Assembly: GCF_964213995.1 (NCBI RefSeq)
Contig: NC_135806.1
Span: 21,390,001-21,454,000, forward strand
Source: Mustelus asterias
Lineage: Eukaryota
Length of the DNA stretch: 64,000 nt
Reading direction: 5' to 3'
Shown in pieces: positions 16,633 to 49,360 of the stretch; the stretch's first letter is position 1; each line of letters begins with the position of its first letter. Below the pieces are notes generated by a model. It was not told the DNA's origin. It searched no databases and saw nothing but the letters and a program-made list of their open reading frames with translations. The position numbers and the translations under genes were made by a program.

Positions 16633-18315
16633 ATTGTTATGTTTTTACTGTCAGAAAATATAAATAATGACATTGCATTAAGCTATTCAGTTGTGCTTGT
16701 TTAAGAAACATAACTGCATTTTAGCTGGTAATTGAAATGTAATCTAACCAGTGTCATTATGGGCACATCGGAGGCAAAATTTCCCCATTTATGCTCAATT
16801 GTGTATTTAACTGAAGTTCAAAGTTTTGCATTTTCCAGTCCGACTTGTAAGGTTTGCATCCACATTTCCTGAGCCCAGGAAGGGGCAATAGCTGAAGAAA
16901 GAGCAAGGGATGGATGATAAAGAAGCATTTGGTAATATTTTTAGTACAAATGAGTAATACTGGTAATGTTGAAACTAGGAATGAAACATGATTGCCGACA
17001 TCTTGCTGCCATTTACGCCGGCAGGATTGTCCCATTGACAGCATAATTCCACCTTGGGTTTCCCAGGGTTGAGGGGTGCATTCAATGGGAAACCCTGTTG
17101 GCAACAGCGGGACCATCAGATCCCACTGCCAATGAGCAGCGTACCGCCTCCCCCCACCACCAAACACACTGTGGAGAGGGAGGAAAATCCCACTGGTTAT
17201 CTTGTGCTATTTTGTTTGAAGCAGTGATGGAAAAATGCTCAGTTATTCAAGGTACTTCAGCAATTTTTAAAAAAGAATAATTGACAGTATGATATTTATC
17301 AGTCTTGATTTCACCCTCAGCTGCAAAGCAACAGCATTTATCTTCAACCCAAAGAAAGCTACTACAAGGAGCGACCAATCTTTCTGGCATGGATTTCCCC
17401 CTTCCCAGCACTACTTTCATTCTGGAGTCTGCTCAAGGGAATTTCTAGCATTTAGCAACAGGCAGGTCATTAAGCAACCAAACAACCAATCACATTGAAG
17501 GATTCTCACAACCAGCAATCCAGGAAGTAAAATCCACTTATCATTATTAAATTTTCATCATTTTGTTTTGGCAGCTGAATAAAGTTTGTGAGTTATCCAT
17601 GGGAATAAGGTGGAAACTGAAATATTACAAATAAACTACCTGTACTTCAAAATAATGCCATGGTGTCTATTGCATCAACCTTAGAGGACAGATAAGTGTT
17701 CAGTTTAACATTCCGTATGAAAGACAGCGGGTGAGATTCTTTGGCCTCCCAGCCATGTGTTTCCCGACGGTGCAAGATGGCGTGCTGTTCACTGGCGGCA
17801 AGATTCTCTGGTCCTGCCACGGCCAATGGGATTTCCCATTGATGTCACTCCACACCGCCATGGAACTTGCGGGCGGGGATGCTCTGCTGGTGGGATCGGA
17901 GAATCCCGCTGACGTGAACAGCCAGAGAATTCCAGCCGGCATCTCTGATGGTGCAGCCCTCTCTCAGTACTGCATTGGAATGTCAGGCTAGGTTTTGTGT
18001 TCAATTTCTGCAGTGGGATTTTCAACCGCGGTGTTCTGACTCAGAAACACGAGTGCTGCCCACAAGCTAAGACCGACAGTGAAAAAAATCAGATTTGAAA
18101 TTATCAGCTGGCTGAAGGAGTAGAAGTGAAGGGAGCTTCTCCAAATGGAAAAGGATCTTTCGGAATTACAACACTGTCAAACTAAAGGTATTGTAGTAGG
18201 GCTAACCCAGAGAGTGTGGGCCGCAGTGGGAGAGGAATGAATGGAAAGGGTTAAACACAGTAAGAAGTCTCACAACACCAGGTTAAAGTCCAACAGGTTT
18301 ATTTGGTAGCAAATA

Positions 18316-18352
18316 CCATCAGCTTTCGGAGCACTGCTCCTTCGTCAGATGG
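18316..18352 (-). ncRNA. Antisense-arm hammerhead motif with G at the predicted cleavage position
   Basis: The reverse complement reads CCAU-CUGACGA-A-GGAGC-AGU-GCUCC-GAAA-GCUG-AUGG. Confidence 0.6.
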
Positions 18353-18373
18353 AGTGGATATCTGCTCTCCACT

Positions 18374-18410
18374 CCATCTGACGAAGGAGCAATGCTCCGA
18401 AAGCTTATGG
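18374..18410 (+). ncRNA. Minimal hammerhead ribozyme motif (PLE-type)
   Basis: CCAU-CUGACGA-A-GGAGC-AAU-GCUCC-GAAA-GCUU-AUGG: catalytic core, stem II, palindromic stem III and stem I (CCAU/AUGG). Confidence 0.75.
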
Positions 18411-19466
18411 TATTTGCTACCAAATAAACCTGTTGGACTTTAACCTGGTGTTGTGAGACTTCTTACTGTGCTTACCCCAGTCCAACGCCGGCATCTCCAC
18501 ATAAGGGTTAAACAGACAGCACTGTAGTATCCACACTCACTGCAGGCACACACATGACAAATTACAAATAACTACACCCCAGATGGCACGAACACACAGC
18601 AACAATGAGAATTGATATCACTTATCAAGGCTCCAAATGTCTTGGGGAGCCATTGTGCCTGTGGAAAACTAATCAAATGTCAGAGAGATGGGACAATTTA
18701 ACATACCATCAAAATCAGTTTAGCAAACACATGCTTTGATATTGTAAACAGATAGACAGAAAATGTCCAGAAAATGATTAAAGTTAAAGCAGAAAGGGAC
18801 AGGGCAATGGATTCGCATAATGTGATCAAAAGCAGAACTGTAACCAATTCAAAGTAACAATCTGATGACCTAATCGAAATGCAGCACTTTGTAACGCAAA
18901 AAAGAATAAGAATATGTAAGAACTGATGATTAGCAGAGTAGCTCGGAAGCAAGCTGTTGTTACACGAGTTCTGCTCTCCCTCACGCATGTTGAATAAAGT
19001 TGTTTTTGTTGAAGTTTTACATGGTCTCGGAAGACTCAGTTTGTTCATTCCCTCCTCCAGGTATCAACCTGTTAACTATTTGACTCGCTATAGATGCTAT
19101 CTGACCTGCTGAATATTTCTAATATTTCCTGTTTCTGTCACAACTAAACTGTTTAGATGAACATCAGTGCATTCCAGTACCTTGGAAAATTAACCACAGA
19201 AATATAGGAGGACATAGCAGGGCTAAAAGAGGAAAAGATGAAACAAAGTGAGTTTATTTATTAGTCACAAGTAATGCTTACATTAACACTGCAATGATGT
19301 TACTGTGAAATTCTGGCGCCTGTTCGGGTCAATGCACATCTTTCAGAACGTGGGAGGAAACCAGAACAACCGGAGGAAACGCAGACACTGGGAGAATGTG
19401 CAAACTCCACACAGACAGTGACCCAAGCCGGGAAACGAACCCGAGTCCCTGGCGCTTTGAAGCAGA

Positions 19467-23895: not shown

Positions 23896-24439
23896 ATCTT
23901 TGTTCATTAACGGACACCTACTACTCAAAAAACCATTTTTCCTGAAAGTAAACATGAAAAAATTCAACCTTTTGAATCCCACTTTCATCCAGTTCAAGCC
24001 TTAAAAAAATACAACTAACATTAAAGTTTATTTATTGGTCACAAGTAAGTCTTACATTAACACTGCAATGAAGTTACTGTGAAATTCCCCGAGTTATCAT
24101 AGTCCAGTGCCTGTTCGGGTCAATGCACTTAACCAGCACATCTTTCAGACTGTGGGAGGAAACCGGAGCACCCAGAGGAAACCCACGCAGACATGGGGAG
24201 AACGTGCAAACTCCACACAGACAGTGACTCAAGCCGGGAATCAAACCCGGGTCCCTGGCGCTGTGAGGCAGAGTGCTAACCGCTGTGCTACCGTGCATGT
24301 TCAATGATTGAACTGTGCTGGACCACTGGGAATTTTAAAAAATAAGAAACCAATTCAGGTCAATTGCATTGTCAAAAAAATGTGGCATAAAACAGGTTCA
24401 CCTATAACCGACTGCAAATTTGAGACTCAATGGAGGTAT

Positions 24440-26742
24440 AAGGGGGCAAAGCTTGACCTCATCTTGGGAAATAAGGAAGGGCAGGTGTCAGAAGTGTTAA
24501 TGAGGGATCACTTTGGGACCAGTGACCATGATTCTATTGGTTTTAAGATAGCTATGGAGAACGATAGGTCTGGCCCAAAAGTTAAAATTCTAAATTGGGG
24601 CAAGGCCAATTTTGATGGTATCAGGCAGGAACTTTCAAAAGTTAATTGGGGGAGTCTATGGGAAGGCAAAGGGACGTCTGCTAAGTGGCACGCTTTCAAA
24701 AGTATGTCAACCAGAGTTCAGGGTGAACATATTCCTCTTAGAGTGAAGGGCAAGGTTGGTAGAAGTAGGGAACCCTGGATGACTTGGGATATTGAGGCCC
24801 TGGTCAAGAAGAAGAAAGAGGCACATGACATGCATAGGCAGATGGGATCAAGTGAATCCCTTGAAGAGTATAGGGGGTGTAGGAGTAGAGTTAAGAGAGA
24901 AATCAGGAGGGCAAAAAGGGAACACTTTTTTGGCAGATAAGGCAAAGGAGGATCCAAAGAGCTTCTACAAATACATAAAGGGCAAAAGAGTAACAAGGGA
25001 GAAAGTAAGGCATCTTGAGGATCAACAAGGTCATCTATGTGCGGATCCACAAGAGATGGGTGAGATCCTAAATGAATATTTCTCATCAGTACTTACTGTT
25101 GAGAAAAGCATGAATGTCAGAGAACTTGGGGAAATAAATAGTGATGTCTTGAGGAGTGTACATATTACAGAGAAGGAGGTGCTGGAAGTCTTAAAGCGCA
25201 TCAAGGTAGATAAATCCTAGGAGATTGTGGGAGGCTAGGGAGGAAATTGCGGGTCCCCGAGCCGAGATATTTGAATCATCGATTGTCACGGGTGAGGTGC
25301 CTGAAGATTGGAGAGTGGCAAATGTTGTGCCTTTGTTTAAAAAGGGCTGCAGGAAAAAGCCAGGGAACAGCAGGCCAGTGAGCATCACATCTGTGGTGGG
25401 TAAATTGTTGGAAGGTATTTTGAGAGACAGGATCTGCAGGCATTTAGAGACGCAAGGACTGATTAGAAACAGTCAGCATGGCTTTGTGAGTGGAAAATCA
25501 TGTCTCACAAATTTGATTGAGTTTTTTGAAGGGGTAACCAAGAAGGTAGATGAGGGCAGTACAGTCAACGTTGTCTACATGGACTTTAGCAAGGCCTTTG
25601 ACAAGATACCCCATGGTAGGCTGTTGCATAAGGTTAAATCTCATGGGATCCAGGGTAAAGTATCTAAATGGATACAAAATTGGCTTCCTGACAGAAGCCA
25701 GAGGGTGGTTGTAGAGAGTTGTTTTTCAAACTGGAGGCGTGTGGCCAGCGGTGTGCCTCAGGGATCAGTGCTGGGTTCACTGTTATTTGTCATTTATATT
25801 AATGATTTGGATGAGAATATGGGAGGCATGGTTAGTAAGTTTGCAGATGATACTAAGATTGGTGGTATAGTGGACAGTGAAGAAAGTTATCTCCGATTAC
25901 AACGAGATCTTGATCAATTGGGCTGACGAATGGCAGATGGAGTTTAATTTAGATAAATGCAAGGTGATGCATTTTGGTAGATTGAACCAGGGCAGGATTT
26001 ACTCAGTTAATGGTAGGGCGTTGGGGAGAGTTGCAGTTCAAAGAGATCGAGGGGTACACGTTCATAGCTCCTTGAAAGTGGCGTCACAGGTGGACAGAGT
26101 GGTGAAGAAGGCATTCAGCATGCTTGGTTTCATCGGTCAGAACATTGAACACAGGAGTTGGAATGTCTTGTTGAAGTTGTACAAGACCACACTTGGAATA
26201 CTGCGTGCAATTCTGGTCACCCTATTAAAGAAAGGATATTATTAAACTAGAAAGAGTGCAGAAAATATTTACTAGGATGCTACCGGGACTTGATGGATTG
26301 AGTTATAAAGAGAGGCTGGATAGACTGGGACTTTTTCCTCTGGAGCAGAGGAGGCTGAGGGGTGACCTTATAGAGGTCCATGAAATAATGAGGGGCACAG
26401 ATCACCTGGATAGTCAATATCTTTTCCCAAAGGTAGGGGAGTCTAAAACTAGAGGGCATAGGTTTAAGATAAGAGGGGAGAGATACAAAAGTGTCCAGAG
26501 GGTCAATTTTTTCACACAGAGGGTGGTAAGTATCTGGAACAAGTTTCCAGAGGTAGCAGTGGAGGCGGGTACAATTTTGTCTTTTAAAAAGCATTTAGAT
26601 AGTTACATGGGTAAGATGGGTATAGAGGGATATGGGCCAAATGCGGGTAATTGGGATTAGTTTAGGGGTTTAAAAAAAAAGGGTGGCATGGACAAGTTGG
26701 GTCGAAGGGCCTGTTTCCATGCTGTAAACCTCTATGACTCTA
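24440..26742 (+). mobile_element. CR1 LINE ORF2, 5'-truncated and frameshifted
   Basis: LDLILGN, SDHDSI, YMDFSKAFD, GVPQGSVLG, KFADDTK and FFTQRVV motifs, ending ctctatgactct. Confidence 0.95.
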
Positions 26743-29675: not shown

Positions 29676-30905
29676 ACCAGTAAGGACTGGTGCAGAAGAG
29701 ATGGGCTGTATCTTTACAAAGTGCATACAGCAAGGCTTGCAAGCATTGAGGCAGCAGTTGAGAATAATTGAAACTAGACTGTGAGGGAGAAAGGGTAGAT
29801 TGGCGGGAATTGAGGGGTGGAACATGGATCCTACAGGATAATGAGCAAAGTGTGATGTGTCAGCAGTGTCATCAAAATAAGGTTAATTTCCCCATCCTTA
29901 AAAGGAGTTCACCAAAAAACTTTTATGTTGCATTCACGTGAATCCGAATGTAGTTCTGAATTTAGGTTATTATCAAAGGCATGTCTTCAACATTGACTCA
30001 CTCTCTGTTCAGATCACATGATTGAGAACAGGGCTCAAATGTAACCACTGCAACATCCCTGAGATGCCAGCAGCAGCAGGAATGGCTGCTGACGTTGGGA
30101 CCTTATTTTCACTCCAAACCCAGCCCCCAGATAGTCTCCATTACCCCGACACAAAGGTGGACTTAATATTGCTCCACTGGTATTCAGTGCCAACTTGTCA
30201 TCCTTCAAAACCTGTGTCATTTTAGCGATGATGGGAAGGAGGGGAGATGGGAGGAATTGGGAATTCCCCCTCCCATCCCTTTGTCATGTTAAGCACCAAA
30301 TGGTTGTAGTTACAGACACTCTGTCCATCACAAGGGAATCCCTGTAAATCAAAGATTAACAGAGACAGAATAGAGACCATGCATTCCCAGCTGCTTTGGA
30401 GAGAAATCACTCCAAAAGGCACACATGCATCATATACTTGAAATGGGAACAGAACTGGAGGCAAATACGATAAGAGAAGGACATGGCAGGAACATCAGAA
30501 CAAGAAACATGCACTTAAATTTAATGCAGCAGTATAAAGCTATAATGAACGATAATTAAGGAAGAACAAATTAAGTCAGAAAGGAAACTAGTGTCATCCC
30601 CATAGAGCAGAACAAATAAAGAAGTTGCTGCTGTGGGAAGTTGACCTATTTTGTTTGAGCATCTTTAATGTGAAAATAATATAGCAACACCCGGGGCACA
30701 GTCCAGACTCCCAGTTCAGAATAAGCGTCAGGAATCATAGAATCACTACTGTGCAGAAGGAGGCCATTCGGACCATCGAGCCTGTACCAACTCTCCGACC
30801 TAGCATCTTATACAGGTCCACCCTCCTGCTTATCCGAGTAACCACAGTAAGAAGTTTAACAACACCAGGTTAAAGTCCAACAGGTTTATTTGGTAGCAAA
30901 AGCCA

Positions 30906-30942
30906 CACAAGCTTTCGAAGCTCGAAGCCCCTTCTTCAGGTG
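30906..30942 (-). ncRNA. Minimal hammerhead ribozyme in the Penelope terminal repeat
   Basis: The reverse complement reads CAC-CUGAAGA-A-GGGGC-UUCGA-GCUUC-GAAA-GCUU-GUG. Confidence 0.75.
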
Positions 30943-31151
30943 AGTGGGAATTCTGTTCACAAACAGAGTTTATAAAGACACAGACTCAATTTACATGAAT
31001 AATGGTTGGAATGCGAATACTTACAACTAATCAAGTCTTTAAGAAACAAAACAATGGGAGTGGAGAGAGCATCAAGACAGGCTAAAAAGATGTGTATTGT
31101 CTCCAGACAAGACAGCCAGTGAAACTCTGCAGGTCCACGCAACTGTGGGCG

Positions 31152-32526
31152 TTACAAATAGTGTGACATGAACCCAACATCCCGGTTGAGGCCGTCCGCG
31201 TGTGTGCGGAACTTGGCTATCAGTTTCTGCTCAGCGACTCTGCGCTGTCGTGTGTCGCGAAGGCCGCCTTGGAGAACGCTTACCCAAATATCAGAGGCCG
31301 AATGCCCGTGACCGCTGAAGTGCTCCCCAACAGGAAGAGAACAGTCTTGCCTGGTGATTGTCGAGCGGTGTTCATTCATCCGTTGTCGCAGCGTCTGCAT
31401 AGTTTCCCCAATGTACCATGCCTCGGGACATCCTTTCTTGCAGCGTATCAGGTAGACAACGTTGGCCGAGTTGCAAGAGTATGTACCGTGTACCTGGTGG
31501 ATGGTGTTCTCACGTGAGATGATGGCATCTGTGTCGATGATCCGGCACGTCTTGCAGAGGTTGCTGCGGCAGGGTTGTGTGGTGTCTTGGTCACTGTTCT
31601 CCTGAAGGCTGGGTAGTTTGCTGCGGACAATGGTCTGTTTGAGGTTGTGCGGTTGTTTGAAGGCAAGAAGTGGGGGTGTGGGGATGGCCTTGGCGAGATG
31701 TTCGTCTTCATCAATGACATGTTGAAGGCTCCGGAGGAGATGCCGTAGCTTCTCCGCTCCGGGGAAGTACTGGACAACGAAGGGTACTCTGTCCACTGTG
31801 TCCCGTGTTTGTCTTCTGAGGAGGTCGGTGCGGTTTTTCGCTGTGACGCGTTGGAACTGTTGATCAATGAGTCTAGCGCCATATCCTGTTCTTATGAGGG
31901 CACCTTTCAGCGTCTGGAGGTGTCTGTTGCGATCCTCCTCATCCGAGCAGATCCTGTGTATACGGAGGGCTTGTCCGTAGGGGATGGCTTCTTTAACGTG
32001 TTTCGGGTGGAAGCTGGAGAAATGGAGCATCGTGAGGTTATCCGTGGGCTTGCGGTACAGTGAGGTGCTGAGGTGACCGTCCTTAATGGAGATGCGCATG
32101 TCCAAGAATGCAACCGATTCCGGAGAGTAGTCTATGGTGAGCCTGATGGTGGGATGGAACTTGTTGATGTCATCATAGAGTTGTTTCAGTGATTGTTCAC
32201 CATGAGTCCAAAGGAAGAAAATGTCATCGATGTATCTAGTGTATAGCATCGGTTGAAGGTCCCGTGCGGTGAAGAAGTCTTGTTCGAACCTGTGCATGAA
32301 GATGTTGGCATATTGAGGTGCAAATTTGGTCCCCATGGCTGTTCCGTGTGTCTGGATGAAGAACTGGTTGTTGAAGGTGAAGATATTGTGGTCCAGGATG
32401 AAGCGGATGAGATGTAAAATTGCATCTGGAAACTGGCAGTTGTTGGCGCTGAGCACTGAGGCCGTTGCAGCAATGCCATCGTCATGGGGGATGCTGGTGT
32501 AGAGTGCCGAGACATCCATTGTGAGA
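31152..32526 (-). CDS. PLE reverse transcriptase plus GIY-YIG endonuclease (N-terminally truncated, uninterrupted)
   Basis: TMDVSALYTSIP, GTAMGTKFAPQYANIFM, RYIDDIF, Cys linker PCRSNLCKTC and VVYLIRC...WYIGETMQTLRQRMNEH. Confidence 0.92.
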
Positions 32527-32869
32527 TATCCGAGTAACCCCATTAACCATTATCTTTGGATAATAAGGGTCAATTCAGCATGGCCAGTCCACCTAACCTG
32601 TACACCTTTGGAATGTGGGAGTAAACCGGGAGCATCTGGAGGACACCCACGCAGACACGAGGAGAACATACAAACTCCACACACAGACAGTCACCCAAGA
32701 CTAGTGAGACAGTTTGTTCTGACATGAGAACAGGAAGAGGCCTTTCAGCTCCTTAAACGTCAAAACAGGAATACAACATAACGGGGATGAACCTGCTTTG
32801 CATTGATTTGAATGTATTTAAATATTATCAACCAGGCCCTTCGCCAGGTATTGACCCCTCACCACATAT

Positions 32870-48019: not shown

Positions 48020-49360
48020 CTGAAACAGAGAGTAGGACAGTTTCGTAAAGTGAATGAAAGTGGGCAGCAGTCTTCCAGAGGTTCTGTCTGGAACCACTTT
48101 GTTCACTGTAAACTAATGAGAATATTGGGCAAGAGGGAGTCACAGCCAAATTTGCAGATGATGCTACAATATAAAAACAGTGAATAATTCTGATTACCAA
48201 AAGAAGCTTTCATAAGAAAAGTCACAGTGGAATTAGCAACACAGAAAGCTGGACGAGCTTAAAAATTTGGGAGTTCAGGTTGAAGGAGTAATTTGACAAG
48301 GAAGCACTCAATGAATGGTAGGACATTAGAAAGTTCTGTGGAACAAAGGGACCTTGGTGTGTTTGTCCAAAAATTGCTGAAAGCAGAAGGGCATGTTAGT
48401 AGGGTGATCAAAAAGGCATCAAGGACACTTGCCTTTATCAATTGAGGCATAGATTACAAAAGCAGGGAAGTCATGTTGGAGTTATAGAACTTTAGTGAGG
48501 CCACAGCTAGAGTACTGTGTACAATTCTGATCACCACATTATAGGAAGGATGTGATTGCACTGGAGGGGGTGCAGAAGAGATTTACCAGGATGCTGCCCA
48601 GGATGGCACATTTAAGCTATGAAGAGAAATTAAATAGGTTTGGGTTGTTTTCGTTGGAGCAGAGAAAACTTGAGGGGCAACCTGACTGAGGTGTACAAGA
48701 TTATGAGAGGCATGGACAAAGTGGATAAGGAGCAACTAACTATTCACCTTAGTTGAAGGGGACATAGGTTCAAGGTGAGTGGCAGGAGGTTTGGGGGAAT
48801 GTGAGGAAAATCTTTTTTACCCAGAGGATGGTGACAGTCTGGAATGTGCTGCCTGGGAGGGTGGTAGAAGCGGGTTGCCTCACATCTTTAAAAAAGTATC
48901 TGGATGAGCAGTTGGCACATCATAACATTCAGGGCTATGGGCCAAGTGCTGGCAGATGGGATTACGTTGGAGTCCAGGTGTTTCAAATGTGTCGGTGCAG
49001 ACTCGATGGGCCTCTTCTGCGCTGTATGATTCTATGGTCAGAAGCAGCACTTCGAGTGGACAAGGCCACAAGAAAAGCTTGTATAATACTAGATGTTATC
49101 TACAATATCCAAGTTGAGATGTAATGCTGAACTTATATAAAGCCTTGGAAAGAGCACAGTTGGAGTACTCTGTGGATTCCCCTCGATAAAAGGAGAATGT
49201 TGAGAATGTGCAATTGCAGATTCACTAGGATACTGCCAGGTATGAGGGAATACAAATTTAAATGAAAACTTGAACAATTCAAGGTTTTCTTATCCCAGAA
49301 AATAAGGTTAAAGGATGATTTGATAGAGGTGTTTAAAATTATGACAGAATACAACAGATA
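48020..49360 (+). mobile_element. Older CR1 containing a younger CR1 3' part (~48260-49035)
   Basis: KFADD near 48150, RPQLEYCVQF and RKIFFTQRMV. The older copy resumes after 49035. Confidence 0.8.

Follow-up and report, generated by a model that had tools for sequence, protein, structure and literature searches.

A minimal type I hammerhead motif in the pseudo-LTR of a Neptune-type Penelope-like element from the shark Mustelus asterias

Minimal hammerheads of Penelope-like elements and the shark locus

Minimal hammerhead motifs (min-HHR) in the pseudo-LTRs (pLTRs) of metazoan Penelope-like elements (PLEs) were described by Cervera and De la Pena (2014; PMC4209133). In vitro, an S. mansoni motif on its own showed no cleavage in that study and dimers cleaved weakly, and families full of compensatory changes, opposite-strand motif pairs and single motifs on truncated elements were already documented; the dimer model is also stated in a review (PMC6765202). 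Minimal Penelope hammerheads with covariation and a palindromic stem III have been in print since 2014, and the shark family considered here is a new instance of them. Frangieh et al. (2024; PMC11167929) studied PAc, a Poseidon element from Anolis carolinensis, and reported that the motif cleaved only with protein, that core mutants abolished cleavage, that hammerhead mutants still inserted in vitro, and that RNA-seq gave no read with either end at the cut. The endonuclease-bearing Neptune/Nematis PLEs, with their CX2-5CxxC linker, were defined in a preprint (bioRxiv 2021.04.23.441226) that also describes Naiad elements thriving without hammerheads; this source and PMC3846280 treat inverted truncated copies, a one-sided tail of 30-40 bp and the linker as standard anatomy. 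Animal non-LTR retrozymes, derived from PLE pLTRs, have been reported in one chondrichthyan (bioRxiv 10.64898/2026.07.22.740005).

The window, a 64,000-nucleotide stretch of the M. asterias genome, contains three hammerhead copies, termed here copy A and the right and left arms of copy B. Copy A and the right arm of copy B fit the 2014 consensus (CUGANGAH, G10.1-C11.1, GAAAN-palindrome-NU-H; PMC4209133) letter for letter. The turtle Chrysemys picta bellii, shown in Fig. S3 of that paper, shares with the shark copies the GCU U following GAAA, a 5-bp stem II, a stem I ending in CAU/AUG, and CCAAAUAAA just downstream, but differs from them in the letters of stem II and loop II. Among the rows of Fig. 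S3 and Table S1 of PMC4209133 that were consulted, none is from a shark and the names shark, Callorhinchus and Squalus gave no match; the present family adds a host group to those rows. As in the Neptune/Nematis elements, the window element combines a reverse transcriptase (RT), a CX2-5CxxC linker and, C-terminally, a GIY-YIG domain, and its insertions show 5' truncation, an inverted truncated copy and target-site duplications, with no difference found; the one-ended tail measures 32 nt in the window and 30-40 bp in Neptune/Nematis (bioRxiv 2021.04.23.441226). PAc is similar in that a hammerhead lies upstream of two element ends with a tail between them, but PAc belongs to another clade and its ORF starts in stem II, whereas no long ORF starts inside the copy A motif; the protein-assisted cleavage reported for PAc is a candidate property of the window element (PMC11167929). 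Retrozymes share the type I hammerhead and the PLE-pLTR origin but are built of head-to-tail tandem units, each with a hammerhead, in contrast to the coding-element 3' end and head-to-head stub of the window (bioRxiv 10.64898/2026.07.22.740005); a retrozyme identity was rejected, as no direct (head-to-tail) tandem copies occur in the window. No report of hammerheads in shark Penelope elements, or of chondrichthyan Neptune-type elements, was found in the literature searched, a weak negative given that most subscription papers and repeat databases lay outside the search. The motif is read here, with a probability of about 0.88, as a minimal type I hammerhead ribozyme in the pLTR of an abundant Neptune-type shark PLE, cutting as a dimer and with its core under selection.

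Three hammerhead copies and the insertions that carry them

Copy A occupies positions 30906-30942 on the minus strand, a strand that the preliminary description of this DNA had not given, and is recognized by motif pattern, covariance model and individual letters as a minimal hammerhead of type I form, in which a short helix I closes the 5' and 3' ends and helix II is a hairpin. Read from 30942 to 30906, it comprises a 3-bp stem I (CAC at 30942-30940 with GUG at 30908-30906), core positions C3 to A9 (CUGAAGA, 30939-30933), an extra A (30932), stem II (GGGGC at 30931-30927 with GCUUC at 30921-30917) around the 5-nt loop UUCGA, G12 to A14 (GAA, 30916-30914), the AGCU palindrome (30913-30910), and U17 (30909), with the predicted cut at 30909/30908. 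The right arm of copy B (18374-18410, plus strand) reads, over 18375-18409, CAU, CUGACGA, A, GGAGC, the 3-nt loop AAU, GCUCC, GAA, AGCU, U (U17, at 18406) and AUG, with four pairs in stem I and GGAGC/GCUCC as stem II. Its mirror arm, absent from the preliminary description, is a third minimal hammerhead on the minus strand (18352-18316), which carries a G at position 17 (18320) and a loop II unlike that of the right arm. Stem I measures 3 bp in copy A and 4 bp in the B copies, and stem II 5-6 bp.

The motif pattern matched these three sites in the window and none in 100 shuffles, and a covariance model, whose training set included the three, recovered the same copies at approximately 40 bits with nothing else above 12 bits. 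Core positions C3, U4, G5, A6, N7, G8, A9, G12, A13, A14, A15.1 and U16.1 are present in all three copies, as are the extra A between A9 and 10.1, the G10.1-C11.1 pair and the AGCU palindrome, while a true helix III is absent. Position 17 is the expected A, C or U in two of the three (U at 30909 and 18406) and G at 18320. A G at this position blocks hammerhead cleavage. An Rfam scan of the window returned no hammerhead family among nine matches at E values up to 5.

Copy A lies on the sense strand of a pLTR, 213 nt from the stop codon of the ORF to C3, and its sequence, position and association with this ORF are direct observations. The ORF (31152-32526, minus strand) is 5'-truncated, with 457 open codons up to the stop, and encodes an RT (RVT_1, Pfam E value 2.6e-9, above the cut-off), the zinc-finger linker CRSNLCKTC at residue 327, before the endonuclease, and a GIY-YIG domain whose score of 20.8 bits (E value 4.7e-4) falls under Pfam's cut-off of 22.6. 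In an alignment of 23 sequences, C327, C332, C335 and H394 are invariant, C370, C374 and H410 nearly so, and the GIY-YIG residues Y366 and Y379-G381-T383 are conserved. A single ORF with RT and C-terminal GIY-YIG, a CX2-5CxxC linker and a CCHH motif points to the Neptune/Nematis type, the assignment to Neptune following the linker motif rather than a tree with named references. The nearest named protein relatives are from sharks (Mustelus 93%, Scyliorhinus 85%, Heptranchias 83%), followed by turtles at 41-44%. Between stop codon and hammerhead lies the 3' UTR part of the pLTR (30943-31151, minus strand), and beyond the motif a 3' end common to all three copies (30843-30905, minus strand) with AAUAAA at 30890-30885, in which 57 of 61 aligned bases are identical to the copy at 18410-18470 and where contig coverage is deepest. 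The element spans about 30843-32526, is 5'-truncated and open to the stop, and is flanked by a 13-bp target-site duplication, the left copy of which (30831-30843, plus strand) shares one base with the element end and the right copy of which (32527-32539, plus strand) adjoins the 5' truncation. It was inserted in a SINE-like repeat (30729-30842 and 32540-32700), copies of which are numerous on either strand of the window. Elsewhere, related open frames and repeats occupy the intervals 708-2707, 24308-26660 and 48813-48965; these are probably pieces of a different retroelement family.

The B copies have no attached ORF, the only Penelope ORF match in the window being that of copy A, and are tied to the copy A family by the common 3' end and the tail. 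They lie in a fold-back insertion (18256-18470) of two head-to-head, 5'-truncated element ends with 101-nt arms, which differ at 2 of 101 positions, one in loop II and the other position 17. The right arm alone is followed by a 32-nt Penelope tail (18471-18502, plus strand), and the same 32 nt appear as a loose end at 30838/30843 in the contig alignment. A 12-bp target-site duplication encloses the whole (18246-18257, sharing two bases with the element end, and 18503-18514, both plus strand). The fold-back is predicted to form a hairpin of -191.5 kcal/mol, which would hide both B motifs upon transcription, so that these two are probably silent in place; this mini-insertion of 18256-18502, with its tail and 12-bp duplication, would give a near-perfect 101-bp hairpin if transcribed and is a possible source of double-stranded RNA. 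At the tail-less ends, the flanking target DNA is similar to the beginning of the tail: beside the left arm (18242-18255), 10 of 14 positions match, a level reached by 6e-4 of window 14-mers, and beside copy A (30835-30842) 5 of 8 match (background 0.027), or 6 of 14 (0.11). This likeness could reflect microhomology-assisted priming at an internal RT start, seen in two cases and at lengths chosen post hoc; the anole study calls such priming non-homologous (PMC11167929).

Conservation of the fold beyond and within the shark family

The preliminary description had taken the motifs at 30906 and 18374 as hammerheads of two Penelope subfamilies that covary in both stems and whose fold has been preserved by selection. 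All of the base changes it listed are present, with 5 of 32 positions outside loop II differing (2.1, N7, 10.3, 11.2 and 1.1), and a letter-by-letter comparison confirmed that the core, apart from N7, and the AGCU palindrome are unchanged. The covariation holds for stem I, in which pair 1.1-2.1 has changed on both sides (A-U versus G-C), but not for stem II, in which the changes at 10.3 and 11.2 affect two different pairs, one side each, and give G-U. Both are transitions, and stem II is weaker in copy A than in copy B (-2.8 versus -5.8 kcal/mol). The G-U pairs were accordingly rejected as covariation, the changes being one-sided; they were also rejected as private decay of copy A, as U at 11.2 accounts for about 35% and G at 10.3 for about 98% of the depth in the large contig set described below. 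The probability that none of five substitutions would fall among 13 core positions of 32 is 0.058, and conservation over approximately 60 nt downstream is close to that of the core (57/61). With a single compensatory pair, one-sided transitions, this p value and so conserved a neighbourhood, the two copies alone suggest selection on the fold but do not show it; the support for a selected hammerhead fold in Penelope-like ends comes instead from family variants and distant Penelope-like loci.

A profile of 23 proteins yielded 79 metagenome loci (from the best 80 of 445 confirmed) and nine from prokaryote assemblies, and these 88 loci lie at 24-47% identity. A hammerhead descriptor produced 22 sense-strand matches in 20 loci versus one antisense match; 20 shuffles gave 0-1 matches each, and the antisense count is the better control because the shuffle walk can end early. 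A rescan in which no palindrome was required or rewarded covered the 45 loci in which the ORF end is near-complete and is followed by 300 nt of downstream DNA, and 16 of them carried a match 150-991 nt behind the ORF, the other 29 giving no strict descriptor match. Among the 19 downstream matches listed, the A15.1-U16.1 segment is self-complementary (4, 6 or 8 nt) in 18, and position 17 is A, U or C in all. Fifteen rows, namely the three window copies and 12 relatives, were aligned after omission of duplicates (L022, L084, and the second pLTR copies of L010 and L021), of six matches with a longer stem III (L045, L047, L060, L064, L068 and L070) and of the antisense match L034. Covariation across families is directly visible in this alignment: 98.7% of cells pair, the covariation score of 1.03 was reached by none of 500 shuffles, slid structures scored 0.10-0.20, and RNAalifold predicted stems I and II unaided with a covariation term of -4.1. 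The G10.1-C11.1 pair is present in all 15 rows.

Since the descriptor demanded stems I and II, their pairing is partly by construction, and the independent result is the 15.2-16.2 pair, which is Watson-Crick in 15 of 15 rows and of four types (UA 6, GC 5, CG 3, AU 1). Counting about nine lineages in a quick tree with unlabelled members, and one chance in four for each, the probability of such complementarity is roughly 4e-6. Closely related loci illustrate the change, L005 and L008 (79% protein identity) carrying AGCU and AAUU, respectively. A covariance model further recovered, at E values below 0.02, five distinct full-length motifs that were absent from its training set and did not repeat any of its rows (L085, L080:80, L040, L039 and L016), and the palindrome is present in four of them and not clearly in L016. 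Positions 15.2 and 16.2 are neighbours with no loop between them and can pair only with another molecule or copy, so the earlier proposal of a palindromic stem III serving dimer pairing is supported at the level of sequence by this complementarity in four forms.

An alternative is that selection maintains the fold in the role of a binding or folding element, serving the element's protein or the initiation of reverse transcription just downstream, with cleavage marginal or dispensable. The anole data agree with it, as hammerhead mutants left in vitro insertion unchanged and cleavage needed protein (PMC11167929), as do the success of Naiad elements devoid of hammerheads (bioRxiv 2021.04.23.441226) and the 60 nt downstream that are conserved like the core (57/61). 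It would not, however, account well for the retention of the catalytic letters and of a non-G position 17 across lineages at 30-45% protein identity, nor for the covarying palindrome, and it is considered improbable, though the likeliest of the alternatives.

Variation among members of the shark family themselves was drawn from four of 23 listed sequencing runs, aligned to 30825-31165, comprising 39,825 contigs of run X1, 23 of X11, 15 of X13 and the raw RNA run X23, which had no reads on this interval. Letter shares in X1 are weighted by contig depth and unphased, and a site was called variable when another letter reached at least 3% of depth. Variable sites amount to 0 of 13 in the core, 4 of 6 in N7 plus loop II, 2 of 18 at the other motif sites (stems etc.), and 15 of 182 in the 3' UTR. 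N7 plus loop II thus differs from the core (Fisher p = 0.004) and from the UTR (p = 0.001), whereas the core compared with all non-core motif sites gives p = 0.07. The preliminary description had proposed that a core mutating at the background rate would speak against it; the comparison with the UTR gives p = 0.6. Variation is concentrated where the fold tolerates changes, and in a family as young as this one a lower variability of the core than of the background is not demonstrable. Two stem variants convert G-U into G-C (11.2 U to C at 65% and 11.3 U to C at 23%), and with 10.3 G to A (A-U) at 2%, the pair 10.3-11.3 is seen as A-U, G-U and G-C. The CpG at C11.1-G12 shows no variant at 3%, whereas the loop II CpG varies.

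The division into two subfamilies gains indirect support from letters of the 18374 type that recur in other contigs, including loose ends from another organism (X13), and at least a third type exists. This third type, seen in loose ends of X1 and X13, joins an A-type stem I to a B-type stem II, has A at position 17, and keeps the core and the palindrome. Over the common 3' end, depth, which is no measure of copy number, is approximately five times higher than it is over the A-type motif; type A therefore appears to be a minority of ends.

These patterns bear on a second alternative, in which the shark family merely inherited a fold that is no longer selected, few changes and transition bias producing the rest. 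Both stem II changes are indeed transitions that give G-U unaided (A to G, C to U), stem II of copy A has become weaker (-2.8 versus -5.8 kcal/mol), and neither the two-copy core test (p = 0.058) nor the comparison of core with UTR (p = 0.6) is decisive. A by-product of this kind would not, however, explain why variable sites cluster in N7 plus loop II (4/6 versus 15/182, p = 0.001), why the C11.1-G12 CpG lacks a variant at 3% while that of loop II is variable, the two-sided change in stem I, or the core and palindrome of the third type, and this explanation is regarded as very unlikely.

Proposed dimer cleavage and its possible genomic traces

Dimer pairing, cleavage, help from a protein and a role in the life cycle are proposed as part of the preferred reading, that of a dimer-cutting ribozyme under selection. 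Two motifs present in a tandem or read-through transcript would pair via their AGCU palindromes to form a 4-bp intermolecular stem III, probably aided by the element's own protein, and each would cut after position 17, so that the precursor RNA is trimmed. Master copies that keep transposing would be the target of selection, which may explain why subfamilies vary at N7, loop II and pairing-compatible sites of stems I and II while the core is kept. The window copies would be passive insertions, one on a 5'-truncated element with no tandem partner and two in a fold-back stub. Weak activity is expected, because the AGCU duplex contributes only -2.5 kcal/mol and in unconstrained co-folding it is stem II rather than stem III that forms between molecules; free folding of copy A likewise did not give the hammerhead. 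Cutting as a monomer, in which either a clamp provided by protein or distortion of the A15.1-U16.1 pair takes the place of stem III, would suit a copy A that has no tandem partner in the window and the protein dependence of anole cleavage (PMC11167929), but it leaves the four-form 15.2-16.2 complementarity and the 6- and 8-nt palindromes unexplained, conflicts with the inactive single S. mansoni motif (PMC4209133), and is the least probable alternative.

Possible traces of cleavage were observed among the contigs of X1. Of the 12 joints listed for this run, three contain a piece that stops precisely at 30908, the base directly following the predicted cut, and continues through 8-10 T into 30870 or 30872; on the RNA strand, the T run is a poly(A) located 13-15 nt below AAUAAA. 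Such joints would be left if a polyadenylated 3' fragment cut by the ribozyme were reverse-transcribed, by template jump or from a small circle. It is nevertheless doubtful that they are fossils of in vivo hammerhead cleavage in shark genomes: the three contigs, all at single-copy depth, could derive from one locus, the orientation of the joint is not given, no pile-up of contig ends is listed, and the six best-supported loose-end places shown for X1, from a list with 305 further rows, do not include 30908. If junctions proved to be enriched at 30908 genome-wide, they would constitute evidence from sequence for cutting by minimal Penelope hammerheads in cells, something that anole RNA-seq could not see (PMC11167929), and such poly(A)-to-cut-site joints, if confirmed in a full assembly, would bear directly on whether weak ribozymes cut there. 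With a very large, young copy set and at least three hammerhead types, the shark family is good material for asking whether weak ribozymes cut in cells and what for.

Exact DNA patterns matched nothing in viral contigs, metagenome contigs or prokaryote genomes, and viral contigs yielded no relative in a search with the protein profile either. Several loci with Penelope-like RT (L080 and L081-L086) come from bacterial metagenome-assembled genomes, with hammerheads in L080, L084 and L085; they are probably eukaryotic contamination of the bins, L084 being 99% identical to the metagenome locus L012. Motifs occur in both pLTRs of apparently full-length Penelope-like units of 3.4-5.0 kb (L010:30/3449, L021:7/3430, L016:645/5617 and L080:80/3605). 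The distance from C3 to the ORF start is 142 nt in three full-length relatives, L010 and L021 each having a 1049-residue ORF at this distance, and the two L080 motifs differ in stem II.
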